A stretch of DNA of 63,718 nt, filler included, from Folioceros fuciformis (taxonomy: Eukaryota): NCBI GenBank assembly GCA_049999805.1. It is 29 parts of 29 records of this genome, joined end to end, with 100 filler letters (N's around TTAATTAATTAA, not from the genome) between each part and the next. Parts side by side here need not be neighbours in the genome. Positions count along the whole stretch, not along the records: positions 10,906 to 12,963 come from JBNGIO010000404.1; 28 more parts are not named here. The stretch is one strand, 5' to 3'. Each line of letters starts with the position of its first letter. Position 1 is the first letter of the stretch. Below are positions 3,596 through 59,840 of the stretch, piece by piece. The notes under the pieces are model-generated. The model saw nothing but the letters and a program-made list of their open reading frames with translations. It did no database searches and had not been told where the DNA came from. Both the position numbers and the translations under genes were made by a program.

Positions 3596-4176
3596 TTATT
3601 GGCTCCATGACACGTTGATGTTTCGAGTTTCAGGCTTCTTTTCCTCGACTTTTGGCACCGTCACTGTTAGCACGCCGTTTTCCACCGTAGCGGACACCTG
3701 ATCCAAGCTCACATTGGTCGGGAGCCGGAACTTCCGCAGGAATTGGCCGTGTGAGCGCTCCACATGATGCCACTTGTCCGTCTTCTGCACCTCCTCTTTG
3801 CTGCGCTCCCCACTGATTTTCAGTACATGCCCGTTCTCCACTTCCACCTTCACCTCTTCCTTCTTAAGACCTAAACGAGTTGAAGTCACGACCCTGTCAG
3901 AGACTACCGCACGTCCAACGAATATCGACGTAAGGAGTTCACTTCTGTCAAGCAGAAGGACCTACCAGGCAAATCTGCTCTGAAGATGTGAGCCGTTGGT
4001 GTTTCCTTCCAATCAACCTTGGTGCTGGCCACGGCACTTGCATCCCTCGCAAAAGAACGAGCAGGAGTCCGCTCGGCCAGTCCAAAGCTCTCGAAAGGGT
4101 CCCACAGTCGGTGGAAAGTAAAGGGATCCCAAACATCGTCGTTGCCCAGGCGTGAGAGGAAAGGAGTAAGCGCCAT
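3596..4176 (-). CDS. HSP20: Small heat-shock protein (HSP20, class I-like, 161 aa) copy 2, intact; exons 4176-3966 and 3870-3596, 95-bp GT-AG intron
   Basis: [19 protein letters not shown]...[31 protein letters not shown]...[28 protein letters not shown]. Splicing CCTG|GTAGG...TTTAG|GTCTT gives an open 486-nt frame. Confidence 0.93.
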
Positions 4177-4362
4177 CTACAACACACTCTTCACCGTAGG
4201 GTGAGCTTCCCGCGGGACGTAGATCGTCAAAACTTGGCACACCACTTCTGCTGCCACTGAATTGCCTTCTTCAGCTGCCAATGGATCGTCTTCCTCAGCT
4301 ACTCGCGAGAACGCGATTATCTGAAAAGAACTGCGGGATGTCATGGCTTCAGCAATGCGTAG

Positions 4363-4598
4363 CTTAAGAAGTACGAGCACCATGTTCGGGAGCTTTCTAG
4401 CTGTAACCGTTCTTACACTCTCGCTAGGCTTCTAGAAGTTGGACGGCTAGGCTAGACTGCCCCGAGGTGACCACTGCGGTTCGGTCACGATGCGTCTTCA
4501 GAAGAGTCCAGGCCTTGCACTGGGTACATTGAACTCCTAAAGTACGTACATCGAAAAGGCTAAAGTGTTGTAGATAGATCCCTTCAAGAATTCTCGTA
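4363..4598 (-). promoter_or_regulatory. Putative sHSP copy 2 promoter with heat-shock elements
   Basis: gTTCg-gGAGc-tTTCt at 4384-4398, cTTCtaGAAg at 4429-4438 and cTTCaaGAAttCTCg near 4582-4596; the first two are shared with copy 1. Confidence 0.62.
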
Positions 4599-4799
4599 AA
4601 AAAGTTGGCACGGGATTGAAACCCTTCTACCCATCCTCTCCAATGTTCTCGTCTGCCAATTCCGCACTCTATTCTAAGCCGTACTCTGGGTGTTAGAAAA
4701 TTTTGCACAAAAAGATATTACTAGGCCTAATTTTCCAAATAAAATTTACAACTTGATTGTATCTATGCCTTGTTGAGTACTGACCTAAGGGCACATTCA

Positions 4800-5340
4800 T
4801 AATCACCACATTTATGAGGTAGGGCATCTAGGCTTAAGGCTAAGGGAGTTAGAGACTTTATTACAAAAGAAAGATAGAAATCCATCCTCCCCAAAAGGAA
4901 AAAGTGTGGCTGCAGTAGGGGTCAGCATAATCATCCCACCCTGACCTCTTTAGTGGGCTCTTGTCGGCCATGGCGGCCCCATGAGGAGAACCCAGAATCT
5001 TAAGTTTTTTTAGAACCCAACCTCTTAAGTTTTTCTTTTTCTTTCCTGAAAGCGAATGCAGAACATGGTAGCAAATCCAGTGATATGCGATGGGAAGCAA
5101 ATCCGGTGATATGGGATCTTCGTTGTTAGTGTTCCAAGCCTCCTTCATGATGCAGTTGCAGTATGCGGCACACAATCTGTACAGTCGGTGAATCCCCCGA
5201 AGTCTCTTGGGGTAGCTTAATAGAAGCCGATGTATACACTCAGAACACACGCTTGCAGGAAGCCGGCCACGAGATGGGGATCAATTATGACAGCCTATGA
5301 GGGCCTCTAATCGATAGGGACATGGTGAGGTGGTTGCGTG
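4800..5340 (-). mobile_element. Possible degenerate LINE 3' fragment between sHSP copies 2 and 3
   Basis: Absent from the copy 1 flank; a decayed C/H-containing stretch (SCKRV/SECIHRLLLSYP) loosely recalls the LINE C-terminal zinc motif. Weak. Confidence 0.25.
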
Positions 5341-5725
5341 TCTAAGTTGGTGGTCATGAGCTGGAGCAGATCATACAAACGGAGAAAGTAACACAAACAA
5401 AGACTTGTATTCCGCAATGTGTGTACAAAAACTCCGTGGATTTACAGAGCAACTGAAGAAATGGGTTGGGAGGGTGATTGTAGAAAGTAGAAGCTTCATC
5501 ACTTGGCCATCACTACATAAATAACTGCCTGCAATTTCTTAAAACCTGCTGCCCAAGGGCGAGCAATGTCTCCACTACGGCGAACACCCTATGAATGGCA
5601 GGCATACCTATCTGGAAGACAGTTGGAGGCAGTAGCTTGATCATACCCTACCGAGGGGGCTATTCACAATCCACACCCATCGCTGTCCATCACTGCGTTT
5701 CACGTACAGCACATCTTTGATTCAT

Positions 5726-5861
5726 TCATTGGCTCCATGCCACATCGATGTTTCGAGTTTCAGGCTTCTTTTCCTCAACTTTTGGCACCGTCACTGTGAG
5801 CACGCCATTTTCCACTGTAGCGGACACCTGATCCAAGTTCACATTGGGCGGGAGCCGGAAC
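5726..5861 (-). CDS. HSP20: sHSP copy 3, 3' end only (cut by the contig end)
   Basis: [44 protein letters not shown]; its 3' flank (about 5490-5700) is homologous to that of copy 2 (about 3380-3590). Confidence 0.9.
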
Positions 5862-5961
5862 NNNNNNNNNNNNNNNNNNNNNNNNNNNNNNNNNNNNNNN
5901 NNNNNTTAATTAATTAANNNNNNNNNNNNNNNNNNNNNNNNNNNNNNNNNNNNNNNNNNNN
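5862..5961. other. First of 28 artificial contig spacers N44-TTAATTAATTAA-N44. Others start at 7662, 9583, 10806, 12964, 17498, 20124, 22053, 24269, 27027, 28283, 30432, 32228, 34006, 35334, 38827, 40360, 41674, 43426, 45833, 47944, 50884, 52380, 54995, 57309, 58585, 59841, 61221
   Basis: Identical 100-bp linker with stops in all six frames; flanking sequences are unrelated. Confidence 0.99.
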
Positions 5962-7661
5962 GCTCTAGGTGGACGACAGCTGGCGTTTGCCTCATAGACC
6001 TCGATAAGCTTCATTCCTTGAGATCGAGTTGGGCTGCACTTCTGGGTCACCAAGTGGAGGTCTTCGCTTACGAGCAACTAGCGGCTTTTGCAACCTCTGA
6101 GGCAAAGCTTAGAGGCAAGATGGCTGTTGCGGGCTTGGTCTAGGGGTCAAGTTTTGTCCCTTCCTCGCCTGTAGCTGACGGAGAGGAGGAAGGGAGTCTT
6201 TCCAGGAGACTCATGGGCCTCAGTTCCTCACCTCTCCTCGGGGGGTCCTTACATCCCGCACCCTGCCTGCTACGAGCCATCAGTCCTTAGGGCTTGGAAG
6301 GGGCCTCGGGCCTGCTAGAATAGTTGAGTCAGGTCTAGTAGTATCGGCTACTAGCTCTATTGTCTGGAACTTGATGGCTACTTCTAGCTTGACCATAGGT
6401 AAACGGAGGAACTTGGAGGCCGTCGTAGGGAAAAGGTCTCAAGTTTTTGAAGACTCGTTATCAGGACTTAAGCGCCAGGACCAGATTGCGGTCATCAAAG
6501 CAAGGAAGGCGCTGAACAAAGCTGTTCAACGCATGGCCTTGGACATCACTTCCCCGGAAGGGAAAAAGTCTACGGTGATGGCAGTGCCTAAGGGAGGCCA
6601 CAGACTTCAGGGGAGGATCAATGCTGGTGAGGTGAATGAAATTGTGGTAATGAGTAGTCAATGCAAATTTGGAGCGGAACTAGATTTTGGAAGGGAGGGA
6701 ACCGGATCTGAGGGTCTTGGTTCAAAACTGGTGGACTGTGCAAGCCCCTTGAAACGGGGTAGTCACACTATGAGAGATAACTCGGTTTATGCATCCTAGG
6801 ATGAGGTATTCTTATCTCCCACTGCTGTGGACTATGAGGATTCTGAGACTGTCTGGCATGAAGTGCAAGCTGTCTTCTCCGAGGACGAAGGTACCACATC
6901 CCCTTTAACTTCTATGGAAAAGGATCCTATACGGGTTAAGGAGGTGCAAGTAGAGTATCCTCCCCCGGGGCCGGAGGGTTCCTGCCTGCTGAGTTGTCAG
7001 GAGTTCAGGAAGACGGTAGGTTCAACAAGGAAGAAAGGCAAACATTGGGTGATCAACCTGACGGTTTTGAGAAAGGTGCAAGACTTTTACTCCTTTCTGG
7101 TTATGATAGCGGCGGCGGGGGGGAGCAGATTCCTCTTACCATTACAATGCACCAGTTGCATGCTGGGCAGAAAAGGATCTTCGACTTCCTGGCTGCCAGA
7201 GGGGTTCATGTTGGCAGGAGTGGACTGAAGGTGGAATTCTTCAGTGGAATTTACCAGAAGGATGGTCAACTTTTTGCTAACATCCGGCTAAAACAAGGCT
7301 ATGGGCCCAGTATGCCTCTTATCCTAGAGTGGAAGTGGTCCTTGGATGTTCCTTGGGCAAAAGTCTTGATCCCGTCCTCAGATCTGGTAGCCGGGGAAGT
7401 TGAGGGGCGCACAGGCAGTTTGGGCAGGAGGAACACTCCCACTGTTTGCAAGTCGGAAAGGTTGCAAAGATTGTCCCTTGAATGCAAACCAAAGGATCAG
7501 CTGGCGCGGCCCAAAGTTGTGTCGGGTGCTAGGTTACCCAAGCCATCTGCCGTCCGGAAGCTCTCAAGCAAGTCCCCCTAATGGGTATCGGCACTTTGAA
7601 GAACTATGAGAGGGGGTCTCATCTGAGGATCATTTCCTGGAATGTTAGGGGCTTGGGGGGA
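5962..7661 (+). mobile_element. L1-type LINE fragment: decayed ORF1 3' part and start of ORF2 (APE endonuclease)
   Basis: The frame from the ATG at 7581 reads MGIGTLKNYERGSHLRIISWNVRGLGG, the typical APE N-terminal motif; the upstream frame ends at TAA 7579-7581. Confidence 0.8.
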
Positions 7662-7761: not shown

Positions 7762-8028
7762 AATTAATATTAAACTAATCACCCAACCCTATGGCCTGGT
7801 GCCGAACCTAAACCTTCCCAGGTCTGGGACCAAACCTACACCCACTCTTATAACCAAACCAACTATTTCCTGGTCAATTAACCTAATTAACACAAAGAAA
7901 AATAGGAAAAATGACCAGAAAATCAAGGAAAATTAGAGAAAATAAGTTGAAAAAGAAAACCAAACCATACCACTATTAACCCTTTTTCAACCAAAACAAA
8001 CTACTACCCCAAACTTTGGAGGTTCACA
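7762..8028 (-). mobile_element. LTR family A terminus (element begins TGTGAACCTCCAAAGTTTGGGG on the minus strand)
   Basis: Near-identical to copies with termini at 24438, 28549, 58248, 59761 and 60370, each with a different flank; TG terminus. Confidence 0.85.
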
Positions 8029-8434
8029 CTGGTCCTTGCTGGCGGCGGCGCAGGTGGGTCTCGTTGCAGAGAATTCCTCTCCTCCCTCCGTCGCTGATTG
8101 TTGAGGATGAGGATAGGATCCCGCTCAACCCACTGCTGCGCCTCCTCCCCCGTCAATTCCTCCATGACTGCCTCGGAATAGCAATGAGGCAATCCCCATA
8201 CCCACCAGCGGTAGTAGTAGAGGCCCCTGCGAGTCGTCAGTTGCAGGCCGTAGCCCCGCGTCCCTCCTATGCCCATGCGTACATACAGAAACAACTTCAG
8301 AACTCGAGCTCCTTTCACATAGAGACTCGGCACATAAGAGGCCTCCTCCTCATACTGTAGCACAACCCGACCTTTTGTCATAAAGGAGGTGCTTACCCCT
8401 TCCTCCCTTGGGCTACCTTGGGCTGCCTGCCCCC

Positions 8435-8806
8435 TGCTCTCGTGGGGTACTTGAGGATCCTCCATCCCTCCAACTACTGCTTCTCCTGGCTCAATCCGCG
8501 TGGCGCGAGTTGCCCTCCTGGAGCGCCTGCTCTCATGGGGTACCTGAGGATCCTCCATCCCTCCAACTACTGCTTCTCCTGGCTCAGTCCGCGTGGCGCG
8601 AGTTGCCCTCTTGGAGCGCCTGCTCTCGTGGGGTACTTGAGGATCCTCCATCCCTCCAACTACTGCTTCTCCTGGCTCAATCCGCGTGGCGCGAGTTGCC
8701 CTCCTGGAGCGCCTGCTCTCGTGGGGTACTTGAGGATCCTCCATCCCTCCAAATACTGCTTCTCCTGGCTCACTCCGCATGGCGCGAGTTGCCCTCCTGG
8801 AGCGCC
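8435..8806. repeat. 4 x 90-bp tandem repeat
   Basis: Unit CTGCTCTCGTGGGGTACTTGAGGATCCTCC...TGGAGCGC; gives 30-aa repeats in the ORF track. Confidence 0.95.
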
Positions 8807-8880
8807 TGGGCACAGGCGCCTCTGCCAGCACTTCTTCAACTACTGAGGTCGAGGCTTCGGCTACCAGCGTCGTCCCTCCT

Positions 8881-9115
8881 CTACCAGTAGCCCCTTTGGC
8901 TACCTCGGGTGTTGCAAGACTACCGGTAGCCTCTTCGGCTACCGGTGTGGCCACTCGACTACCAGTAGCCCCATCGGCTACCGGCACTGTTGCTCGGCTA
9001 CCGGTAGCCCTGTTGGCTACTGGCACTGGGACTCAACTACCGGTAGCCCCGTCGGCTACTGGCACTAGGACTCAACTACCGGTAGCCCCGTCAGCTACCG
9101 GCGTCGCTGTTCGGC
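8881..9115. repeat. About 6 x 39-bp tandem repeat
   Basis: CTACCGGTAGCCCC..GGCTACC units giving 13-aa repeats. Confidence 0.9.
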
Positions 9116-10905: not shown

Positions 10906-11451
10906 TCCACTCTTGTTCCTTGCTTGGTCAAGTGTTGTAGGCCGGCCATGTCTCATGGCGTCTGGTAAGGTTGTGGGGAGGAGATACCCAAGAGGGGAGT
11001 GTGTTCCCTTCGTCCTTTTGTTTGGAGTTAGTCTAGTGACTCTTGCCGGGTAGGAGGAGTCCGTAGGGAAGTGTACAAGGTAGTGGTGTCGTTGCTGGTT
11101 GCTAGTAGTTGCTGGTGTTGGTGCTGGAGCGAGAGAGTGAGTGAAGTGAGTGAAGGAAGACGCAGATCTGAGAGGTTAGAGTCGTTGTAGTGACTGGAGT
11201 GAGTTTGTGGGCACCGAGAGAGGTGCAGCTGACCGCCGGACAGCGAGGCCTGTCCTACGCCTGATCGGAGCTGGAGGGGAGCCCTCGAATCCATCATCGA
11301 GTTCATCAAGTCCGACCCTCCATCCACAGCAGCAAGGAACCCCATCGCTCCTTCGTGGGAACGAAACCCAATGTCTCAACGACAGTGGGATAAGTGTGGC
11401 CACTAAAGGTGGGACCCGTCGGCAATCAGTGCCCGGGGTTTTGCCTCCACA
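10906..11451 (+). mobile_element. LTR family C terminus (ends ...GGGGTTTTGCCTCCACA)
   Basis: Seven highly similar copies (termini 11451, 27221, 37825, 48776, 52239, 55389, 58772), all with different flanks. Confidence 0.85.
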
Positions 11452-17597: not shown

Positions 17598-17841
17598 AGT
17601 CCCTGGGGCGACCGGGTGGTCGAGGGGTCGTCTGGTGGGAGAAGTAAGGGGGCTTGGTAAGGTCCGAGCACTGGACGTGTGTGTGTGGGTCAGTCGAGCT
17701 TTAGGTGTTAATTGACTTTAGAAGCTAACCTATGTAGTTTAACACAAATCATTCCCTTGGGATCGAATCCCAGAGCTACAACGACATAGAGGGCTTGTGT
17801 GGACCTCGCGGTACCCCCGGGTACCATATTTTAACCCCACA
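17598..17841 (+). mobile_element. LTR family D terminus (...ATTTTAACCCCACA)
   Basis: Reverse complement of 18937 onward; related copies at 27364 and 35491. Confidence 0.8.
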
Positions 17842-18936: not shown

Positions 18937-20123
18937 TGTGGGGTTAAAATATGGTACCCGGGGGTACCGCGAGGTCCACACAAGCCCTCTATGTCGTTGT
19001 AGCTCTGGGATTCGATCCCAAGGGAATGATTCGTGTTAAACTACACAGGATAGCTTCTAAAGTCAATCAGCACCTAAACTCGACTGACCCACGCACACAC
19101 GTTTCAGTGCTTGGTCCTTACCCAGCCCCCTTACTTCTCCCACCAGACGACTCTCCTACCACCCAGTCGCACAAGGGACTACCTCCCCCTGGACTACTCT
19201 TGGTGGGCCACCGGACTACCCTCCGTTCCCCAATGGACTACTACCGTCGTCTTTCGGGCTACCACTCGTGGGCCCCACTCTCTCTCTCTTTCTCTCTCTA
19301 GGATTTTCTCTCTCTCCGAGTCGTCCCTACCCGACTGTTTTCTCGCGCTTTCCCTTTTGCGCTTTCCTTCCTTGGTTCTCCACAAAATCGCCTCTCACCC
19401 TCAGGATCAAACGCACACACTTATGAACAGCAACAATCTGCCGGTCGCCTTCCACCCATGTGATTTCACACTCTAGGTACACCCCCTGCAGTCTCAAATC
19501 AACTTCCTCACAGTCTCTCCAGTGTCATCGCGGCTAGTCACTCATACACACCACGTCTCGTTACACATTACTCACCTCGCTTCTAGGATTTCTCTGGCTT
19601 CGTTCTCCACTCACCAGTTTTCGATATACATTCTCCTCGTCTCTGGTTACTCGCTTCTCCTCTTTCTCACACACGCGCACCCTCGCGCTTCTTTTTTATC
19701 CAATCCTCCGTCTTCTTTCTCAGCAATGCCCCTCCTGGGCTTCCATGAACATTGAGGAATGGTGAGGTACCGGAGCTAAGGGAAGAGGGACCTCTTCCAC
19801 TCCGAACTCGCGGATTCGGCTCCGACACCCACACCACCCACGTGACCACTCCGAGGATAGCTGGGGAGCTTCTCTCCCACTCGGCGAGGCTCCTCCACCC
19901 GATTCGTCCCCGGACCTGATCACGGAGCGCCCACCACCTACACACCCGCACCCTAGGTTGCTACGTGCGCTCGCTTGCCTGTACCTCCTCTCCAGCAACG
20001 GCCATCGCTAGGTTCCTGCAAGGTCGACTGCTCGGCTGGTGTTTTTCTACTTCCTTAGGCCTTCAAACCGGCCTCTTGTACACGGTGATGGCAGTTTTTC
20101 CGCCATAAAGTCTGTCAGGCAAG
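18937..20123 (-). mobile_element. Family D terminus plus about 1.2 kb of internal sequence, including the decayed orphan ORF tail
   Basis: TGTGGGGTTAAAATATGG start; 19750-20110 is homologous to 36590-36950. Confidence 0.78.
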
Positions 20124-20223: not shown

Positions 20224-20869
20224 TGAGGTTGCAGGGCCGTGAGCCAAGGAGGCTACCCAGCCTTAGGCCTCGCCTTTGCCTTGAAGGCTGCAAGAGGGAA
20301 GGCTGTTGTGTTCCAAATTGCAGGAGAGAAGGGTTGAGTTGCAGATTTTGGAAGTGGAAGTGTTGAAGTGAGGAGTTGAGCTGAAGTGAGGGGCTGGAGG
20401 GTGAAGTGAAGTGCTGAAGTGAAGGACTGAAGTGCTCAAGTGAAGTGCTGAAGTGGTGGAATGAAGTGTTGGAGCTGGAGTGAGGAGCTAGCTGAAGTTG
20501 AGGTTCTCGTTCAACTGCGGAGGTAGCTAGCACTAGGTGCTGAGAGTTGGAGGCCAGACTTGGGGCTGGAGCCTCCTCTGAGCACTGAAGTGATTGATAC
20601 TTGGAGCTGGAAATGAAGGCTGAAGACAATGCTGGAGTTCTCATTTTGTTGAGGCTGGGGTTGGTGTTGTGGTAGGAGCCGAAGACAGGACCGAGACTTC
20701 TGACCTATTGCTGTAGCACTTGGTATATGCTGATAGATAGGGTGAGATTAGGGAGATGTAGGTGACCTTGACATTAGTTCACTCCCTTGGGAGCGAATCA
20801 TAAGACTGCAACGATAATAAGGGGAAGTGTGGCCCCTTGGTGGTCCTTGGGTGCAAGTTTCACTCCACA
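20224..20869 (+). mobile_element. LTR family E terminus (...TTTCACTCCACA) with GAAGTGCT-type short repeats
   Basis: Second copy at 50984-51471 with a different flank. Confidence 0.82.
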
Positions 20870-23035: not shown

Positions 23036-23047
23036 TGGTATCAGAGC
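23036..23047 (+). other. tRNA-iMet primer binding site of a decayed LTR element
   Basis: TGGTATCAGAGC. Confidence 0.75.
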
Positions 23048-24000
23048 CCGACAAATGCTTGCATGCATGTTGCGAAACCTTTAACTTGGCACAATATACA
23101 GTAACCATCGTCTTGATGGACACTTCATTTTGTGCCAAATAGAGGAGTCGCCACCTACGAGCAAACATTCGGATTAACAATTCTACAATTTTTTCATAGG
23201 AATTTAGTTTTCTAACCCAAAAGGCCTACTCAGTGTGAAGAGGCGCTACTAGCGTAGTCCCATGGATCTTCTCCAATCACTGGACACAATAAGAAACATA
23301 GGAGATCAGAAAAATTGCCTTTAATTAGCAGTCAATTTCTTGCATCTTTTTTATGCCTATTTCAATGGAATAATTCGCAGAGGAAATGACAAACAACCCT
23401 AAGTTTTGTAGGTGTCACTTACCCCATACATCCACACAGACCTTTTGTTTCTATAGAAACACCTATAGCAGTTGAATTTGTCATTATCCTTCAGCAGTTG
23501 TTCATAAAAGTCATCCACATTGGGATAGAATAGACACTTCCAGATCTCATAATCCCCTCATACCTGTACAAAACAAACTCCAGGCATTAGCAAAAGAACC
23601 TTACGCATACCAACGTAAGACAAAATTCGATAATATCATGCTACACAAGCAAATAGGGAAGTTAGAATACAAGATCAAGCAACTAGAAAGCCAATTCCAT
23701 CAATTTCAAATTTCAATAGTTACAAGATCCAAAGTAGACACACCCATTTACTCTCCACAAAATCTTGTAGTGCCTTACATGCCAAATACATCCAAATTGG
23801 CTTATACACCTCTTGCTGAACCGTGAGGTGGCCAGATTTCGATTAGATTAGGAGTCGGGTCACTCCAGTTGTAAGCGACCGAGGTCTACAAATTGTGGAC
23901 AGCCGATTCGGAACAAAGCGTGAGGGTAACTATCAAAATCTACATTACATTCCGACAGTTTCTAACAAGCCTTTTGTTTGATTTGCATCGATTTTGAATC

Positions 24001-24438: not shown

Positions 24439-25099
24439 TCCTGGCAGGAGGGGAGCTGCGAGTGCCCTTTCTGTTCCCGATTGCAAAGGTTCTTGTGATG
24501 TCTAGTTGGGAGTCTTAAACGTAGGGAAACACAGAGTTGGATCGTGTAGAAGGTGTTGTGAGGAGACTTGTGGGGAAAGGTGCTGGGTGTAGGTAGTTGG
24601 AAGTTGGTAGGGGGAGGTACTGGGGCCCTTCCAAGTGAAGGAATGGTGCCTTCCTACTAACTAGACGTGTTCAAGGTACGCGGGAAAGGTTGAAGGTCGT
24701 AGGTGAACGATAAACAGAGTTGGAGGGAGCGGACTAGGCTCGGAGGAAAACTTGTTGGTTGTTGGGCATAGGGAGACAAGTAGCTAGATTGTGGGTAGAG
24801 GAAGGTGTCGTAGGGAGCCTTGTGAGGAAAAGGAATTGAGTGTAGGGAGGTAGAAATCGGTAGGGGAGGTGCTCGGGCCCTTCCAAGTGAAGGAATGGTG
24901 CCTACCTATTGATGGGACGTGTGGCCAAATTGGTAGGTACGTGGTTGGGAGAGTTGACTAGTGTAGGGGAGCGATAGATGTAGCTGACCAGGCTTAGAGG
25001 GGAGCGATTCCGGGGAAACCTACAACGACCGTGGGATTGATGTGGTCACGATACATGTGAGCGGGTGCCTGGTAGGGATACCATACCCGCTTGCTCACA
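24439..25099 (+). mobile_element. Putative LTR family G terminus (...CCCGCTTGCTCACA) with an imperfect internal duplication of about 250-bp period
   Basis: Carries the CAACGAC-GTGGGAT-TGTGG module seen in families C, D and E; GGGCCCTTCCAAGTGAAGGAATGGTGCC occurs twice; single copy in the window. Confidence 0.6.
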
Positions 25100-27126: not shown

Positions 27127-27221
27127 GGGAACGAAACCCAATGTCTCAACGACAGTGGGATAAGTGTGGCCACTAAAGGTGGGACCCATCGGCAATCAGT
27201 GCCCTGGGTTTTGCCTCCACA
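27127..27221 (+). mobile_element. Family C terminus nested in a family D terminus
   Basis: ...TTTTGCCTCCACA at 27221. Confidence 0.85.
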
Positions 27222-27364
27222 CCTGGGGTAGTAGTTGACTTTGTGAGACAACCTGCGGTTATTCAACACAAATCATTCCCTTGGGATCGAATCCCAATGC
27301 TATAACGACAAAGAAGGTTTGTGTGGACCTCGCAGCACCCCCGGGTGCAATATTTTCCCCCACA
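27222..27364 (+). mobile_element. Family D terminus inserted in D-like internal sequence (27365-27435)
   Basis: ATCATTCCCTTGGGATCGAATCCC..AACGAC..GTGTGGACCTCGC..CCCCACA; the flank matches the reverse complement of about 36690-36745. Confidence 0.78.
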
Positions 27365-35490: not shown

Positions 35491-37824
35491 TGTGGAGGAA
35501 AAAATTGTACCCGGGGGTACCGCAAGGTCCACACAAACCCTCTATGTCGTTGGAGCCATGGGATTCGATCCCAAGGGAATGATTTGTGCCAATTAACACA
35601 GGTTTCTTCTAGAGGTCGACTCTAACCTAGGTCAGGCTTTACCTACTCCCAGTTCCACTACCCTCAGGTGATCTAGCCACCTCACCTCGACTCTACGGCT
35701 CCAAGACTCGTTCCGCCACCGAGGAAGGGGTCTCTACAACTACTGACTTTTCAATGACTGGTAGGGGCCTCCACAACTAGTAGCAAATTCCACTACTGGG
35801 GTGGGTCCCACCTCAAGGTCCTAACCAATACATGTCATTTTAGATATCACAGGGGGTTTCTACTCGGGGTTTCCAAGTAGCGAGTCGGGGTTACTTAACA
35901 CCCCACAAGTACACACTCGGTCAATCTAACCCCATGGGCATTCACAACCTACACCAACATTCATACAGTGCTTCCACCCATACCAATCCCAACCATACCG
36001 ACGTACCTCACAGTCGCACTCACTCTTAGCAACCGTCATGTTCCTTCAGCAGTCGTTCAACAGTCTCTCACACCTTAGACTTAGAACAATACTCTCCACA
36101 ACTCACGCTCTCACATCACAACTAGCCCACAACCATTCCAGCATACAGACACCTTTCACAAGCACACTCAACAACCACGACTTCTCAGACAGTTTTTTCA
36201 CAGCATCCCTCACCACAGACCCAACACGCTCTCGGTCCCTCCACAATTGCAGCACTTGCGTTTGCGATCAACAGGTCGGGAAGGAGAGACACTCCTTCCA
36301 CTCCACAACCAGCGGATTCGCCACCCTTCCTACAGACACCGCGAACTCGTTCCTTCACTTCTTGTCTTCCGTACACACTCACTCTCTCATCTTCTTCACT
36401 CACTCACATCTTAATCACTCTCACTCGCTCAACTCTTAGACACTCACTCACACCACCATCAGCTCCAGGTTTACGGTCAACAATCGGTAAATAAGGGTGG
36501 GATGAGTTCTCCCTCCACTCCACTCCACTTCCACCCACAACTGTCTCCTCCTCAACTCACTTCTCCTCTCAGTAATTGTAGTGTGGTCGAGACACGAGGG
36601 GATAAGGGAAGCGGGTACCACTTCCACTCCGTAGTCGGCGGATTCGTCCCCTTTTGCTCCCACCACAACACACAATGGGAGGTACTGGGAATAGTAGGGA
36701 AGTTGCCTTCCACTCAGTGAAGATTCTCCTCCCGATTCGTCCCCAAAACCACTTGTCGCAGAGCAGGGAAATCCCAACGCCACCACTTAGGAACGCTGCG
36801 TGCACTCGCCTACTCGGATCTCCTTATCCAGCAGCGGTCATCACCAAGCTTTCTCGAGTTTGGGATGTCAATTTCTTACTGCTTTGCAAGGCGCCAACAG
36901 GCCTCTGGTACATGATGGTGGTGGGTCTATAGCCGCCATTAAGTCTAGTCCACGGATAGGGGGCACTCTTAATTACGAGCGGCATCAGGTCCAAGAAAAG
37001 CATCTCCTACAGATCCTACAGGATTCTATTCTAGGATGCATTTACTATGGCCTATCTTATCGCTGTGCATGCCTCCCGTTCGGCCGTTGGGCTCCTCCTC
37101 TCGCTCCCCAACCTCTAGCTCTCCTCCCTTGCCGTTGGTCAGGCAGATTCTCCCAGAGGATCTCCACATCACCACTGCTGCTGCTCGACCTTTCCAGTGG
37201 TGGCGTAGGTGGGCCTCGTCGCGAGGGACTCCTTCTCTCCTCCGGTCACCTATTGCTAAAAATCAGCACCGGCTCCCGTTCAACCCATGCATGTGCCTCC
37301 TCCTTCGTTAGCTCTCCCAGGACTGCCTCTAAAATAGTAGGGAGGCAGCCCCCACACTTGGCAACAGTGGTAGAAGGACCCCCTGCGAGTCCTCAGCTGC
37401 AAGCAGTAGCCCCTTGTCCCTCCTAATCCCACACGCACATATACAGTCAAGTTTAGCACACGGGCTCCATCCACATAAAGACCAGGAACATAAGTGGCCT
37501 AATCTTGATATTGCAATACAATCTGATCCTCTATTGCAGATGAAGTGCTTACCTCCTCCTCCCATGGGCTACTCCAAAGTGCCTGCCCTCTGTTTTCCAG
37601 TGGTACTGAAGATCTTCCATTCCCCTAGCTGCTGCTCCACCCTTGTCCGTCCTCCTGGCGCGAGTTGCCATTCCAGCTCTGCGGGTTGCGGGTTCCTCAA
37701 CGGAAGCTGCCTTCGCTACCTTGGTCGGACTCTCCTTTACTAGTGTGGTCTCTCTCCGACCGGTAGCCTCTTTGGCTACCTCCGTTGTGACTCGGCTACT
37801 TTGCCTAGCTCTGCCCTTCCCTTT
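35491..37824 (-). mobile_element. Family D element end with a decayed orphan ORF (about 37824-36450) reading toward the CCACA terminus at 35491
   Basis: TGTGGAGGAAAAAATTGTACCCGGGGGTACC start; homology to 8029-9145 and 19750-20110. Confidence 0.75.
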
Positions 37825-38826
37825 TGTGGAGGCAAAACCCCGGGCACTGATTGCCGACGGGTCCCACCTTTAGTGGCCACACTTATCCCACTGTCGTTGA
37901 GACATTGGGTTTCGTTCCCACGAAGGAGCGATGGGGTTCCTTGCTGCTGTGGATGGAGGGTCGGACTTGATCAACTCGATGATGGATTCGAGGGCTCCCC
38001 TCCAGCTCCGATCAGGCGTAGGACAGGCCTCGCTGTCTGGCGGTCAGCTGCACCTCTCTCGGTGCCCACAAACTCACTCTTGTCACTACAACGACTCTAA
38101 CCTCTCAGATCTGCGTCTTCCTTCACTCACTTCACTCACTCTCTCGCTCCAGCACCAACACCAGCAACTACTAGCAACCAGCAAGGACACCACTACCTTG
38201 TATACTTCCCTACGGACTCCTCCTACCCGGCAAGAGTCACTAGAATAACCCCAAACAAAAGGAAGAAGGGAACACACTCCCCTCTCGGGTATCTCCTCCC
38301 CACAACCTTACCAGACGCCATGAGACATGGCTGGCCTACAGCACTTGACCAAGCAAGGAACAAGAGTGGACAGGTTGAGAGAAAGACACACCCTTTACAA
38401 TCAAGAGCTAGGGGCAAGCCCCTTCACCCTGGTCATTACACCTTGTGATCCTACCAGACACTACACAACCGGCAACACGCTGCCCGCGATCCTACCAGAC
38501 ACTGTACAGCCGGCAACACGCTGCCTGCGATCCTACCAGACACTGTACAGCCGGCAACACACGGCTTGCGATCCTACCAGACGTTGCACAGCCGGCAACA
38601 CACTGCAGGTCCTAAACCAAGCAGGGACAGACCACAAGAGCTCAAGAAGAGAGGACCTCCAAGAGCTCACAAAGAGATAGACTGACTCCCAAAAGTGAAT
38701 GACTCCTTCTTCCTACAGGCTCACCTGATCTTATAGGAGCCTCTCTCTCTCTCTGACTTCACCTCTCTCTAACTTGAGAAATATTATTTTAATAGCCTAT
38801 CCGGCTGTCACCAGCCACTTATTTAG
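37825..38826 (-). mobile_element. Family C LTR, longest copy (1 kb), inserted into the family D orphan ORF
   Basis: TGTGGAGGCAAAACC at 37825; TATA-like CTATAAG on the minus strand near 38735. Confidence 0.85.
38447..38606. repeat. 4 x 41-bp tandem repeat inside LTR C
   Basis: GATCCTACCAGACACTGTACAGCCGGCAACACGCTGCCTGC; also present at 48044-48165 in reverse. Confidence 0.92.
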
Positions 38827-48043: not shown

Positions 48044-48776
48044 AAGCCGCGTGTTGCCGGCTGTACAGTGTCTGGTAGGATCGCAGGCAGCGCGTTGCCG
48101 GCTGTACAGTGTCTGGTAGGATAGCGGGCAACGTGTTGCCGGTTGTATAGTGTCTGGTAGGATCACAAGGTGTAATGACCAGGGTGAAGGGGCTTGCCCC
48201 TAGCTCTTGATTGTAAAGGATGGGTCTTTCTCTCGACCTGTCCACTCTTGTTCCTTGCTTGGACAAGTGCTGTAGGCCGGCCATGTCTCCTGGTGTCTAG
48301 TAAGGTTGTGGGGGGGAGATATCCAAGAGGGGAGTGTGTTCCCTTCTTTCTTTTCTTTGGGGTTAGTCTAGTGACTCTTGCCGGGTAAGAGGAGTCAGTA
48401 GGGAAGTGTAGAAGGTAGTGGTGTCATTGTTAGTTGCTGGTGTTGGTGCTGGAGTGAGCGAGTGAGTGAAGTGAGTGAGGGAAGTTGCAGATCTAAGAGG
48501 TTAGGGTCGTTGTAGAGACTGGAGTGAGTTTGTGGGCACCGAGAGAGGTGCATCTGACCGCCGGACAGCGAGGCCTGTCCTACGCCTGATCGGAGCTGGA
48601 GGGGAGCCCTCGAATCCATCATCGAGTCGATCCAGTCCGACCCTCCATCCACAGCAGCAAGGAACCCCATCGCTCCTTCGTGAGAACGAAACCCAATGTC
48701 TCAACGACAGTGGGATAAGTGTGGCCACTAAAGGTGGAACCCGTCGGCAATCAGTGCCCGGGGTTTTGCCTCCACA
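48044..48776 (+). mobile_element. Family C terminus
   Basis: ...TTTTGCCTCCACA at 48776. Confidence 0.85.
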
Positions 48777-50983: not shown

Positions 50984-51471
50984 GTGAAGTGCTGAAGTGA
51001 AGGACTGAAGTGCTGAAGTGAAGGACTAAAATACTGGAGTGAAGTGCTGAAGTGGTGGAATGAAGTGTTGAAGCTGGAGTGAGGAGCTAGCTGAAGTTGA
51101 GGTTCTCGTTCAGCTGCGGAGGTAGCTAGCACTAGGTGCTGAGAGTTGGAGGCCAGACTTGGGGCATGAGCCTCCTCTCAGCACTGAAGTGATTGATACT
51201 TGGAGTTGGAAACGAGGGCTGCAGACAATGCTGGAGTTCTCATTTTGTTGAGGCTGGGGTTGGTGTTGTGGTAGGAGCCGAAGACAGGACCGAGAATTTT
51301 GATCTATTGCTATAGCACTTGGTATATGCTAATAGATAGGGTGAGATTAGGGAGATGTAGGTAACCTTGACATTAGTTCACTCCCTTGGGAGCGAATCAT
51401 AAGACTGCAACGATAATAAGGGGAAGTGTGGCCCCTTGGTGGTTCTTGGGTGTGCAAGAAATCACTCCACA
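50984..51471 (+). mobile_element. Family E terminus inserted into a Copia
   Basis: Near-identical to 20400-20869; ends CACTCCACA. Confidence 0.85.
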
Positions 51472-52238: not shown

Positions 52239-52379
52239 TGTGGAGGCAAAACCCCGGGCACTGATTGCCGACGGGTTCCACCTTTAGTGGCCACACTTAT
52301 CCCACTGTCGTTGAGACATTGGGTTTCGTTCCCACGAAGGAGCGATGGGGTTCCTTGCTGCTGTGGATGGAGGGTCGGA
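52239..52379 (-). mobile_element. Family C terminus
   Basis: TGTGGAGGCAAAACC at 52239. Confidence 0.85.
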
Positions 52380-52479: not shown

Positions 52480-52632
52480 GAGGGGAACGGGGCAAGAAAT
52501 CAGCGGGAAGGAGAAGAAGGCAGGCCTGGCCCTACATCGGCCGAATCCTACAGCTCGTCTCAGCCTCCTCTCCTGCACACATTCGATCCCATCACCCGTC
52601 GATCCCTCCTCCTGCCTACAATCTAGATCCAA
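52480..52632 (-). mobile_element. Family A internal fragment
   Basis: Matches about 57524-57677. Confidence 0.8.
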
Positions 52633-55094: not shown

Positions 55095-55389
55095 AAGACG
55101 CAGATCTGAGAGGTTAGAGTCGTTGTAGTGACTGGAGTGAGTTTGTGGGCACCGAGAGAGGTGCAGCTGACCGCCGGACAGCGAGGCCTGTCCTACGCCT
55201 GATCGGAGCTGGAGGGGAGCCCTCGAATCCATCATCGAGTTGATCAAGTCCGACCCTCCATCCACAGCAGCAAGGAACCCCATCGCTCCTTCGTGGGAAC
55301 GAAACCCAATGTCTCAACGACAGTGGGATAAGTGTGGCCACTAAAGGTGGAATCCGTCGGCAATCAATGCCCGGGGTTTTGCCTCCACA
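55095..55389 (+). mobile_element. Family C terminus
   Basis: ...TTTTGCCTCCACA at 55389. Confidence 0.85.
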
Positions 55390-57408: not shown

Positions 57409-58248
57409 GGGCTAGACCAGCCCGTGGCGAGGGGAGATGGCAGCGGGATTGGAGAAAATGGGCAGGGGAGCAAGGCAAATCTAGCAACGGGGCTGTAGAT
57501 TGGGAGGAAATCGGGACAGGTCAGGAGGGGAACGGGGCAAGAAATCAACAGGAAGGAGAAGAAGGCAGGCCTGGCCCTCCATCGGCTGAATCCTGTAGCG
57601 CGCCTCAGCCTCCTCTCCTGCACACATTCGCTCCCATCACCCGTCGATCCCTCCTTCTGCCTGCAATCTAGATCCAAAGAAGAAACAGGGAGGAAAGATT
57701 GAGAAGGAAGGGAGGAAGAAGAGAAAGGGGGCTAGAAGGGAATGGAGGAGGAAGGCAGAAAGGGGGAAAAGGGATGGGGGCGGCCGCAACCCCTGCCTCT
57801 AGCTCTAGCTAGGGCATGGCCTTCACAGCCGTTCATGCCAGCCAACCAATCAGCCAGCCCATCGTCAGACCCTGACCCCTGACACTGACATACCCAGATA
57901 CCCGTTCCTATGTTCAAACCATTATTATATTATTATTATATTATTATATTATTATATAATCATTTAATATTATATATCTTTAATTAATATTAAACTAATC
58001 ACCCAACCCTATGGCCTGGTACCGAACCTAAACCTTCCCAGGTATGGGACCAAACCTATACCCACTCTTATAACCAAACCAACTATTTCCTGGTCAATTA
58101 ACCTAATTAGCACAAAGAACAATAGGAAAAATGACCAGAAAATCAAGGAAAATTAGGGAAAATAAGTTGAAAAAGAAAACCAAACCATACCACTATTAAC
58201 CCTTTTTCAACCAAAACAAACTGCTGTCCCAAACTTTGGAGGTTCACA
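57409..58248 (-). mobile_element. Family A LTR, longest copy (840 bp)
   Basis: Ends GGTTCACA at 58248. Confidence 0.87.
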
Positions 58249-58771: not shown

Positions 58772-59280
58772 TGTGGAGGCGAAACCTCGGGCACTGATTG
58801 CTGACGGGTTCCATTTTTAGTGGCCACACTTATCCCACTGTCGTTGAGACATTGGGTTCTATTCCCACGAAGGAGCGATGGGGTTCCTTGCTGCTCTGGA
58901 TGGAGGGTTGGACTCAATCGACTCGGTGATGGATTCGAGGGCTCCCCTCCAGCTCCGATCAGGCATAGGACAGGCCTTACTGTCCAGTGGTCAGCTGCAC
59001 CTCTCTCGGTGCCCACAAACTCACTCCAGTCACTACAACGACCCTAACCTCTCAAATCTGCGACTTCCCTCAGTCACTTCACTTGCTCTCTCACTCTAGC
59101 ACCAACACCAGCAGCTAACAACGACATCACTACCTTCTACACTTCCCTATTGACTCCTCCTACCCGACAAGAGTCACTAAACTAACCCCAAAGAAAAGAA
59201 AGAAGGGAACACACTCCCCTCTTGGATATCTCCTCCCTACAACCTTACCAGACGTCATGAAACATGGCCGGCCTACAGCA
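58772..59280 (-). mobile_element. Family C terminus (more diverged copy)
   Basis: TGTGGAGGCGAAACC at 58772. Confidence 0.85.
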
Positions 59281-59760: not shown

Positions 59761-59840
59761 TGTGAACCTCCAAAGTTTGGGGTAGTAGTTTGTTTTGGTT
59801 GAAAAAGGGTTAATAGTGGTATGGTTTGGTTTTCTTTTTC
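59761..59840 (+). mobile_element. Family A terminus
   Basis: TGTGAACCTCCAAAGTTTGGGG at 59761. Confidence 0.87.

Follow-up and report, generated by a model that had tools for sequence, protein, structure and literature searches.

The window, by which we mean the whole 63,718-base stretch of Folioceros fuciformis DNA analysed here, is composed of 29 contigs of 1.1-5.9 kb separated by spacers of the form N44-TTAATTAATTAA-N44; these are short junction contigs. It contains fourteen element termini, belonging to family C (n = 7), family D (n = 4), family E (n = 2) and family G (n = 1), at the positions and with the assignments given in the earlier note. All fourteen carry one cassette in a common order (GGGAnCGA, CAACGA, a purine run, TGTGG, hairpins and CCACA) and all finish in CACA. 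In the focal copy of family C (11338-11451, plus strand, element end at 11451), TCGCTCC at 11345-11351 is the 5' arm of a hairpin that would sequester block 1 (6/7 pairs), and block 1 itself, GGGAnCGAA with n = A, lies at 11357-11365 and is complementary to nt 54-62 of tRNA-Asp at 8/9 positions. Block 2, CAACGAC (11377-11383), is the exact complement of tRNA-Asp nt 1-7. A purine-rich run (11384-11394) then precedes the internal TGTGG, and the terminal hairpin domain (11395-11451) extends from this TGTGG (11395-11399) to CCACA (11447-11451), enclosing the arm pair CCAC (11400-11403) and GTGG (11409-11412) as well as the arms CCCG (11415-11418) and GGCA (11421-11424) opposite TGCC (11430-11433) and CGGG (11434-11437).

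The remaining family C modules lie at 27127-27221 (plus strand; cut by the contig start and inserted in a D-type LTR), 37825-37938 (minus; inserted in an internal region that we call Y), 48663-48776 (plus), 52239-52352 (minus; inserted in a copia RT-like frame), 55276-55389 (plus) and 58772-58885 (minus; the most decayed copy, at 92%). Those of family D occupy 17738-17841 (plus), 18937-19038 (minus; facing the 17841 copy across 1095 nt), 27262-27364 (plus; a subfamily with a compensatory GCACC/GGTGC hairpin) and 35491-35592 (minus; a D subfamily, at the 3' end of a putative complete LTR). Family E contributes 20768-20869 and 51367-51471, and family G 24993-25099, all on the plus strand.

The shared, ordered blocks described earlier are specific to these termini, as they occur nowhere else in the window and none would be expected by chance. 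The pattern AACGA-N5-25-[GA]TGTGG-N30-75-CACA, applied to both strands of the 63,718 bases, returns exactly these 14 sites. A stricter pattern, GGGANCGA-N12-15-CAACGA-N10-14-TGTGG, matches 11 of the 14 termini, missing C48776, C58772 and D27364 through one point change in a block each, and has no match in 100 dinucleotide-preserving shuffles. A profile HMM of the module recovers the fourteen termini with E-values of 2e-25 to 7e-9, and its single further match, at E = 8.7, is noise. Within families the copies are 87-100% identical; between families BLAST finds no match outside the module, as had been claimed, and even the D subfamilies lose similarity to one another some 117-134 nt from the terminus.

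On the other side of CACA the sequence is unlike in all fourteen cases. The insertion at C52239 falls inside a Ty1/copia RT-like frame and that at C37825 inside a repeat that contig 3 holds uninterrupted, and because both map within other repeats CACA is the true boundary of a mobile element. A loose-end consensus built beyond 37825 (28 contigs, agreement 0.38) reveals no common flank. Such a sharp, copy-independent boundary, with unrelated flanks and nested insertions, is what an LTR would show. None of the 29 contigs carries a pair of direct copies from family C, D, E or G. Family C reaches a summed contig word depth of about 250,000, compared with 12-20 in neighbouring low-copy DNA, and this depth stays flat over at least 1 kb; there is hence no LINE-like 5' truncation, and a LINE-like 3' end was rejected. 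Among sequencing runs, none listed as RNA contains the stretch; the contigs of one run, guessed to be RNA, also cover family C, and are uninformative on strand and ends.

It could also be argued that these are not LTRs at all, but the ends of DNA transposons with long terminal inverted repeats, or DNA palindromes bound by protein. Two D copies do face each other in contig 7 as a 245-nt inverted repeat (92%), and the D hairpins are perfect DNA palindromes. The facing ends, however, point towards each other and so represent a right and a left terminus of two separate copies, and the D-type unit of contig 16 has at its far end a sequence unlike that of its module end, with only an 8-nt inverted repeat in common. 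Moreover, the 30 ORFs scanned include no transposase domain, the flanks have no fixed target dinucleotide, and the pairing of a transposase with the same inverted terminus at both ends of a unit was not observed. We regard this explanation as extremely improbable.

The D-type unit of contig 16 provides a putative complete LTR of 1678 nt (35491-37168, minus strand), which starts with TGTGGAGA and ends with CCTCCACA. Read from 37168 to 35491 it has TG...CA termini and a terminal inverted repeat matching at 7/8 positions (TGTGGAGA...CCTCCACA); its 5' boundary at 37168 is our reading of this inverted repeat and of the upstream region's homology with contig 3, and is accordingly provisional. That upstream region, Y (37169-37824, minus strand), is homologous to 8044-9143 of contig 3, so that both contigs present a homologous internal region upstream of an LTR start. 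Y includes a 53-codon stretch (37339-37498, minus strand) whose counterpart in contig 3 (8183-8342, minus strand) lies, in the minus-strand reading, about 155 nt upstream of the start of family F (8028). In this single comparison of two copies, on which the orientation is based, the stretch is open in both copies in the module-strand frame only, where 18 synonymous differences stand against 17 non-synonymous codon differences and mismatches are distributed 15/6/22 by codon position. The remaining five frames show 2-12 synonymous against 20-31 non-synonymous differences, with stop codons in both copies for three of them and in one copy for a fourth. Since purifying selection acts on the upstream ORF in its module-strand reading, the module would form the 3' (R-U5) terminus of the LTR, beside the presumed primer-binding site (PBS), and would thus lie where signals acting in cis on priming and strand transfer, two of the roles suggested earlier, belong. 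The 53-codon ORF has no Pfam match, and protein searches at near and at longer lengths gave no homologue. The protein atlas did no more than confirm a fragment of an E1-E2 ATPase, whose taxa are uninformative, and returned no match for the ORF beside D18937.

The reverse strand could nonetheless be the sense strand, in which case the cassette would be the first ~115 nt of U3 beside the polypurine tract, conserved for integrase recognition and plus-strand priming. Several observations would fit this arrangement. On that strand a conserved 21-nt block beginning with TGG (37198-37218 in contig 16) follows the putative LTR end after 29 nt in contig 16 and after 11 nt in contig 3, a spacing that would suit the complement of a tRNA 3' end; the block 1 hairpin gains one G.U pair there in C, D and E; the flank of E20869, read in this direction, has a purine-rich run immediately ahead of TGTGG; and the sequence before the two putative module-strand LTR starts is only weakly purine-rich, a poor polypurine tract. 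Against it, in addition to the selected ORF, the implied tRNA 3' end corresponds to no tRNA known to us and its discriminator base differs between copies, and 115 nt far exceeds what integrase recognition needs. Moreover, a conserved U5/R joined to a variable U3 is the usual pattern of LTRs. We therefore consider the opposite orientation unlikely.

With the module strand as sense, the abrupt stop of homology at 117-134 nt from the terminus would fit a conserved R-U5 joined to a variable U3, and we infer that the U3/R boundary lies near -125. The 1678-nt putative LTR contains no TATA box in either orientation, and the only two poly(A)-like hexamers are about 965 nt from the family C end. None of the fourteen flanks is an internal junction. 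Other LTR families of the window do carry TGGTATCAGAGC sites. A "mini-LTR", in which the purine run would act as polypurine tract for a 42-59-bp TGTGG...CCACA unit, was also considered, and no separate copy of such a terminal unit was found in the window. On this evidence the cassette is most likely the replication-control end of an LTR, and not a structured RNA of some novel type. That the cassette is, more precisely, the conserved R-U5-side end of the LTRs of one retrotransposon group with at least four families is a reading for which we see about an even chance.

The cassette had been proposed to be a covarying multi-hairpin RNA, and this is partly supported. The inverted repeats named for it are present (CCAC/GTGG and CCCG-GGCA/TGCC-CGGG in C, the GGTACC palindrome in D, a long hairpin in G), and each family has its own hairpin. 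The multi-way junction with covarying arms, on the other hand, is not supported in the form proposed: RNAalifold finds no fold shared by the families among the 10 distinct sequences (-1.2 kcal/mol on the module strand and -1.7 kcal/mol on the reverse, with 5 pairs only), and the TGTGG/CCACA helix has zero variation across families. Two-sided changes are few, namely one T:A to C:G replacement in the D hairpin and a 4-bp stem that is 6 bp in E, and most of the within-family variation is post-insertion decay, uninformative on selection. The proposed pairing of the internal TGTGG with the terminal CACA is not the best one in G, where CACA pairs better with a second TGTG than with the conserved TGTGG, and the upstream (block 1) hairpin, present on the module strand in C, D and E with one or two mismatches (6/7, 6/8 and 8/9 pairs), is missing in G. 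When compared with dinucleotide shuffles, the 115-nt modules have MFE z-scores of -1.44, -1.31, +0.13 and -2.25 and the terminal domains of +0.32 to -2.30. The stems are thus barely more stable than the shuffles, D and E being roughly at the level that the earlier note would have taken as counting against it and C and G borderline. Conservation is mainly at the primary-sequence level. What is supported of the selected structured element is a non-random cassette at a true terminus, shared by families with unrelated bodies, fold and stability giving weak support for the rest.

These results bear on the possibility that common descent, combined with recombination or template switching, spread one LTR end among the families, in which case selection would be confined to the terminal integrase site and would act on neither structure nor tRNA contacts. 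Both the sharp break in homology at -117 to -134 and the weak thermodynamic support, with no consensus fold, would be in keeping with such a history. The conserved blocks alternate with freely varying spacers, however, and the D subfamilies carry unlike palindromes at one position (GGTACC.., GCACC.. and a third type, which 4 contigs show as a loose end at 35539 with an agreement of 0.61), which argues for constraint; we find spread by recombination quite unlikely.

The R-U5 placement that we favour gives a context to the two conserved blocks. Plant tRNA-Asp sequence is available from a printed primer for its 5' end (PMC6521008), from the FIDEL primer-binding site, from which its 3' end follows (PMC2844528), and from a source in which both halves are printed (PMC10068972). 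Compared post hoc with these published plant letters, rather than with a tRNA of this organism, block 2 forms 10 Watson-Crick pairs with tRNA-Asp nt 1-10 in D17841 and in G, 9 plus one G.U in D27364, 9 in D35491, 8 plus two G.U in E and 7 plus one G.U in C. Block 1 is complementary to T-loop nt 54-62 at 9, 8, 8 and 7 of 9 positions. The sole variable position among its first eight (A, T or G over the four families) is opposite A58, and the ninth also deviates in G. With at most one mismatch the 10-mer occurs 11 times in place of the 2.3 expected, although the copies are not independent. The candidate contacts fall outside the 3'-terminal 18 nt of plant tRNA-Asp, where additional primer contacts would be placed. 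Even when 3 mismatches are allowed, the 18-nt tRNA-Asp primer itself is matched nowhere, similarity ending after nt 10-11; nor does the window contain a tRNA-Asp primer-binding site at 3 or fewer mismatches over 19 nt, and 12-nt matches to that site are at chance level only. A likeness of block 1 to the initiator-tRNA T-loop was dropped, since tRNA-Asp also explains block 2.

Two further explanations of these blocks have to be weighed. In the first, they would be an inert relic of tRNA-Asp, left by primer read-through copying or by a tRNA-derived insertion as in Helenus and kept by descent only, the hairpins being incidental. Read on the reverse strand, the 10-mer (nt 1-10) and the 9-mer (nt 54-62) do follow one another in tRNA order, colinear and 7-10 nt apart. 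ARAGORN, however, detects no tRNA, the Rfam tRNA model is empty at E <=10 for the C module and at E <=5 for the D, E and G stretch, and there is neither an A box (A-box-like letters occur in family C only) nor a match to tRNA-Asp nt 1-18; that the blocks are kept across four families, when the rest of the LTR is unalignable, points to constraint. We consider a relic very unlikely. In the second, the cassette would be the R-U5 fold of elements that prime themselves (as in Tf1/Tcn1 or the TAR clade), where the 5' end of the transcript folds back onto a PBS just past CCACA and the hairpins supply the U5-IR structure that RNase H cleavage requires. PMC6317226 gives self-priming as predicted in 12% of plant elements, and as notable in the Tcn1 chromoviruses of mosses and club-mosses and in copia TAR elements. 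A cassette of ~115-125 nt would suit a short R-U5, and a tRNA-type PBS lies beside none of the fourteen ends. That absence is uninformative, however, none of the flanks being an internal junction, and the tRNA-Asp complementarities would become coincidental, and we give self-priming equally little credence.

We propose instead, on the strength of sequence complementarity, that tRNA-Asp may be the primer of these families. That blocks 1 and 2 act as extra contacts for it is the mechanism that we favour, possible if rather doubtful; that the cassette as a whole would be a three-part docking platform for primer tRNA-Asp, made up of the PBS, block 2 and block 1, is a tentative extension to which we assign a slightly lower probability. 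The cassette would have two parts, the sequence-conserved blocks GGGAnCGAA and (CTA)CAACGAC and a terminal 42-59-nt domain with an invariant TGTGG/CCACA inverted repeat around family-specific hairpins, which we infer to form in RNA. The shared 115-125 nt would represent the R-U5 side and the unrelated upstream bodies a fast-evolving U3. Within genomic RNA, the cassette of the 5' LTR copy would then stand directly upstream of the primer-binding site and contribute in cis to reverse transcription. Until the tRNA binds, the upstream complement of block 1 would keep that block masked, much like the HIV-1 PAS. As the 3' acceptor strand of the tRNA anneals to the primer-binding site, block 2 (CAACGAC, extending to CTACAACGAC) may capture the released 5' acceptor strand, nt 1-7 and up to 1-10, and block 1 (GGGAnCGAA) the T-loop and 3' T-stem, nt 54-62, its free position lying opposite a base that would be N1-methylated and pairing-incompetent in the mature tRNA. 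In this way the entire acceptor/T minihelix would unzip and anneal to the genomic RNA surrounding the U5 hairpin domain. Precedents for two of these steps are the PAS-T-arm contacts of HIV-1 and the non-pairing nature of m1A58 (PMC11251516). This mechanism expects a TGGCGCCGTTGCC-like (tRNA-Asp/Asn) site after CCACA.

The statement that the cassette is not a described motif holds for its letters, Rfam and literature string searches having returned nothing relevant; the kind of element is already known, though the motif letters are undescribed. No Rfam family reaches its gathering score. The sub-threshold hits, all far below gathering scores, are snR76 (E 1.1), NEAT1_2 and Ocean-VII (E ~4), and MIR1882 (E 0.012), the last of these elsewhere in the searched sequence. 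Rfam reports no hammerhead or other ribozyme of the kind that would mark a retrozyme, and no tRNA or 5S at E <=10 or <=5 of the kind that would mark a Helenus or Cassandra; a tRNA or tRNA-derived SINE head was discarded on the same grounds, together with the 0 genes from ARAGORN. Pattern scans yielded 6 loci in viral_contigs (five of them copies of one sequence, phage by source and composition only, and one unrelated) and 9 in metagenome_contigs that are bacterial-looking by composition only. All of these loci are without the terminal domain and are chance matches.

What is new here is the putative full LTR, its ORF-based orientation and the two tRNA-Asp-complementary blocks; a new category of element is not opened by the cassette. 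If our reading is correct, the cassette would provide a compact signature with which to find and orient a very abundant LTR group in a poorly assembled genome, as is done with the junction motifs of ATHILA and SIRE, and it would mark the U3/R boundary of LTRs without recognisable promoter motifs. The tRNA-Asp complementarities would likewise offer a testable idea on plant primer selection and positioning beyond the PBS, a subject on which our search for plant retrotransposon literature found nothing. Should docking be true, plant retrotransposons would have their first described case of such an extended complex between primer and template, and capture of the 5' acceptor strand would be without precedent.

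Among the closest parallels are the cis-acting U5 structures of retroviruses and LTR retrotransposons, which occupy, as the cassette probably does, the U5 side of the LTR upstream of the PBS, contain a hairpin domain closed by an inverted repeat and include short conserved stretches complementary to the primer tRNA beyond its 3' end, T arm included. The terminal domain described here resembles the U5 inverted-repeat stems of retroviruses and Tf1. Avian retroviruses make a U5-T-loop contact with their primer tRNA, Ty1 has its boxes and Ty3 a bipartite primer-binding site. The primer activation signal of HIV-1 (PMC11251516) is a further known system of this kind. In contrast to these, the putative partner here is a plant tRNA-Asp of which both the 5' acceptor strand and the T-loop would be captured, and the distance from the blocks to the LTR end is ~70-95 nt. 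Plant LTRs with structured or small-RNA-related sequence offer further comparisons. Retrozymes (PMC4918200) also carry a structured RNA motif in their LTRs, a hammerhead ribozyme in their case, whereas our cassette has no Rfam ribozyme match. The TRIMs Helenus, Ajax and Cassandra (PMC10886601) have LTRs of ~120-320 bp with a near-complete tRNA or 5S sequence and A and B (or C) boxes, as opposed to a 7-10-mer and a 9-mer only in LTRs of at least 1 kb. Comparable too are the SIRE motifs (PMC2829016), which are lineage-specific conserved non-coding motifs of plant LTR retrotransposons, and the LTR-internal junctions of ATHILA (bioRxiv 10.64898/2026.03.20.713144), where conserved LTR-end motifs likewise adjoin a diverged LTR remainder and are conserved across families and hosts, so that they can serve as lineage-finding seeds. 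In Brassicaceae ATHILA the LTR ends in TATCA, followed by a tRNA-Asp/Asn PBS, whereas the end here is CCACA and the conserved part extends ~115 nt into the LTR.

The ~115-nt cassette shared by the termini of repeat families C, D, E and G is a real, lineage-specific LTR-end element of an already known kind. All 14 termini listed in the earlier note (C, n = 7; D, n = 4; E, n = 2; G, n = 1) are genuine, and copies within one family are 87-100% identical. A composite expression of the ordered motifs, run on both strands of the whole window, matched exactly these 14 termini and nothing else; a stricter pattern matched 11/14 and found no match in 100 dinucleotide-preserving shuffles, while a profile HMM of the module recovered all 14 plus one noise match (E = 8.7). 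As had been claimed, the families do not align with one another outside the cassette, and similarity among D subfamilies ends 117-134 nt before the terminus. The families have primary sequence in common: GGGAnCGA(A), (CTN)CAACGA(C/T), a G-run, (G/A)TGTGG and CCACA. The sequence past CACA differs in 14/14 copies. Two family C copies (named by the window coordinate of their ends) interrupt other sequences: C52239 a copia RT-like frame, and C37825 a repeat of which contig 3 has an unbroken copy. CACA is thus a true element boundary. Two D copies, 17598-17841 (+) and 18937-19180 (-), are 92% identical, and 1095 nt separate their facing ends. The 18937 end is followed, 13 nt on, by the start of an unclassified ORF.

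The window is composed of 29 contigs of 1.1-5.9 kb each, linked by N44-TTAATTAATTAA-N44 spacers (5862-5961 and 27 more), and neighbours in its coordinates are therefore not genomic neighbours. For the most part the contigs are repeat junctions. Pfam domains in the window include Ty1/copia RT (RVT_2), copia gag, SH3_retrovirus, one E1-E2 ATPase fragment and an integrase with H2C2 and rve domains that we take to be of Ty3/gypsy type, and several LTRs are followed by an initiator-tRNA primer-binding site, TGGTATCAGAGC. These features are the sole ground on which we describe the genome as plant-like. In contig 1 (20-5861) the ATPase fragment (1869-2510) is flanked by direct repeats that are 390-690 nt long, 74-91% identical and 2.1-3.6 kb apart; it is possibly a piece of a gene caught between LTR-like repeats. 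Rfam weakly matches 23050-23173 (-) to the MIR1882 precursor (29 bits, where the gathering score is 107; E 0.012). This stretch follows directly on a primer-binding site for tRNA-iMet at 23036 and probably represents a copia leader hairpin.

Contig 16 bears on the orientation of these LTRs. Read along the module strand, here minus, it begins with a family C LTR ending in CCACA at 37825, continues with an internal region, Y (37824 to 37169), and then with a D-type unit running from 37168 (TGTGGAGA) to 35491 (CCTCCACA), with an inverted repeat of 7/8 and a D-type module at its far end; the D body is partly common to contig 7. Region Y is homologous to contig 3 (9143-8044). For a stretch of 53 codons, 37339-37498 (-) against 8183-8342 (-), the module-strand frame alone is open in both copies, and there 18 codon differences are synonymous and 17 non-synonymous and mismatches by codon position are 15/6/22. 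The other five frames give 2-12 synonymous against 20-31 non-synonymous differences, with stops in both copies in three of the five and in one copy in a fourth. By this codon comparison the stretch is evidently under purifying selection on the module strand. Pfam gave no family for this ORF and two large protein searches gave no homologue; it may be an additional ORF, specific to the lineage, that precedes the 3' LTR. A same-strand ORF upstream of an LTR makes that LTR the 3' LTR in sense orientation, and the cassette would therefore be the LTR 3' end, on the R-U5 side.

The opposite orientation has its own evidence. A TGG-initiated block on the strand opposite the Y ORF is kept between contigs 16 and 3 (37198-37218 (+) and 8040-8065 (+)), and a loose end from run X3 has it too. 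It is spaced like the complement of a tRNA 3' end and could be a primer-binding site if that orientation holds; polypurine tracts on the module-strand reading are weak. These two observations, together with the dependence on a single two-copy comparison of an ORF that has no homologue, lead us to hold only as probable that the module strand is the sense strand and that the cassette lies at the R-U5 side.

The contig 3 homologue of Y adjoins the start of family F (TGTGAACC at 8028). The seven F termini, at 8028, 24438, 28549, 58248 and 60370 (+) and at 59761 and ~26581 (-), have no module; they end in ...GGAGGTTCACA, and the opposite-strand reading starts with TGTGAACC. Since the F start abuts Y, F may be the 5' part of module-bearing LTRs, its starts being the missing 5' ends of the C, D, E and G LTRs, which would explain why 14 module ends are seen and no opposite ends. 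At 52582-52606 and 57627-57651 (plus coordinates) the F body contains a pair of block-1-like motifs on the minus strand: GGGATCGAC and, after a gap of 7 nt, GGGATCGAA in contig 24 or GGGAGCGAA in contig 26, with TGTGTG following. The arrangement resembles a brief echo of the cassette. The family C LTR contains 81-nt tandem repeats (38444-38606), and region Y of contig 3 ~93-nt ones (8433-9102).

Related LTR families usually combine a conserved R-U5 with U3 bodies that are unrelated. The point where homology is sharply lost, about -117 to -134, would correspond to the U3/R boundary, and the cassette would lie in genomic RNA directly 5' of the primer-binding site. We consider the chances about even that the cassette is, in this general sense, an R-U5 cis-element.

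The covarying multi-way junction proposed in the earlier note could not be established. On the module strand, RNAalifold of ten distinct sequences gave 5 pairs at -1.2 kcal/mol; the reverse strand gave 5 pairs at -1.7 kcal/mol, namely the invariant TGTGG/CCACA helix, which is uninformative either way. MFE z-scores of the 115-nt module against dinucleotide shuffles were -1.44 (C), -1.31 (D), +0.13 (E) and -2.25 (G) on the module strand and -1.33, -0.59, -2.52 and -0.53, respectively, on the reverse; for the terminal domain alone (TGTGG to CCACA), module-strand values were -0.69 to -2.30 (C), -0.76 to -0.91 (D), +0.32 and -1.16 (E) and -2.27 (G). That each family has its own hairpin in this domain does hold, but informative changes between subfamilies are few: one T:A pair has turned into C:G between D17841 (GGTACC/GGTACC) and D27364 (GCACC/GGTGC), and the CTTG/CAAG of E20869 is TTCTTG/CAAGAA in E51471. 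A third D-like type has a different palindrome in the same position, as a loose end in 4 contigs only (agreement 0.61). Differences within families say nothing on selection because they are mostly post-insertion decay, as in C58772, a 92% copy with three G-to-A changes within stems. The Rfam search that had been proposed left the window without a match at gathering scores, and no credible match fell on the modules even at E up to 10 or 5. These results speak only weakly for a covarying structured RNA.

The one lead worth follow-up is complementarity to tRNA-Asp, noticed post hoc and scored for this single tRNA with plant tRNA-Asp letters taken from papers. Passages of three papers supply them: PMC6521008 prints the 5' 18 nt as a primer, the 3' 19 nt can be derived from the primer-binding site of FIDEL (PMC2844528), and PMC10068972 prints both halves under a wrong miRNA label. 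Block 2 (CAACGAC) complements tRNA-Asp nt 1-10 with 10 Watson-Crick pairs in D17841 and G, 9 plus one G.U in D27364, 9 in D35491, 8 plus two G.U in E and 7 plus one G.U in C; in its 7-nt acceptor part, both changes keep wobble pairing. The similarity ends past nt 10-11. Block 1 (GGGAnCGAA) complements nt 54-62 at 9/9 (D), 8/9 (C, E) or 7/9 (G) positions, and in its first eight the sole position variable between families (A, T or G) lies opposite A58; the ninth differs in G too. A58 of primer tRNAs is described as N1-methylated and non-pairing (PMC11251516, in part). In C, D and E an upstream complement makes block 1 double as the 3' arm of a hairpin (6/7, 6/8 and 8/9 pairs, respectively). An exact tRNA-Asp 5' 10-mer occurs in family C on the module strand ~265 nt before the end, at 11181-11190 (+), 38086-38095 (-), 48506-48515 (+), 55119-55128 (+) and 59033-59042 (-); it is inverted relative to block 2 and could pair with it. 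The window yielded no primer-binding site for the module-bearing families. That blocks 1 and 2 would dock a tRNA-Asp primer is a model that we put forward as rather unlikely.

In one DNA run, family C had a summed contig word depth of ~250,000, against 12-20 in adjoining low-copy DNA, flat across at least 1 kb; D modules reached ~3,700-6,900. Such depth is not equivalent to copy number, and we take it to mean only that family C is very abundant and not 5'-truncated. Family C was also found in a sequencing run of a second, related organism.

Retroviruses and Tf1 have U5 inverted-repeat stems, and the terminal domain, closed by TGTGG/CCACA around family-specific hairpins, is alike. Lineage-specific conserved LTR-junction motifs are reportedly known in SIRE. 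String searches of the literature found only unrelated uses of the block sequences, and literature searches found no primer-activation signals of plant retrotransposons. Helenus, Ajax and Cassandra LTRs are described as carrying tRNA or 5S genes (PMC10886601, in part); this type was considered and rejected, as its defining features are absent here, with ARAGORN finding no tRNA gene and Rfam no credible match. Among surveyed plant elements, 6% are reported with tRNA-Asp primer-binding sites and 12% with predicted self-priming (portion of PMC6317226). Block 1, in its hairpin with an upstream complement, recalls the primer activation signal of HIV-1, which is masked and pairs with the T arm of tRNA-Lys3 (PMC11251516). 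A lineage-specific LTR-junction motif is also known in ATHILA, given in part of a preprint as TATCA, 3-6 nt and a tRNA-Asp/Asn primer-binding site (bioRxiv 10.64898/2026.03.20.713144).
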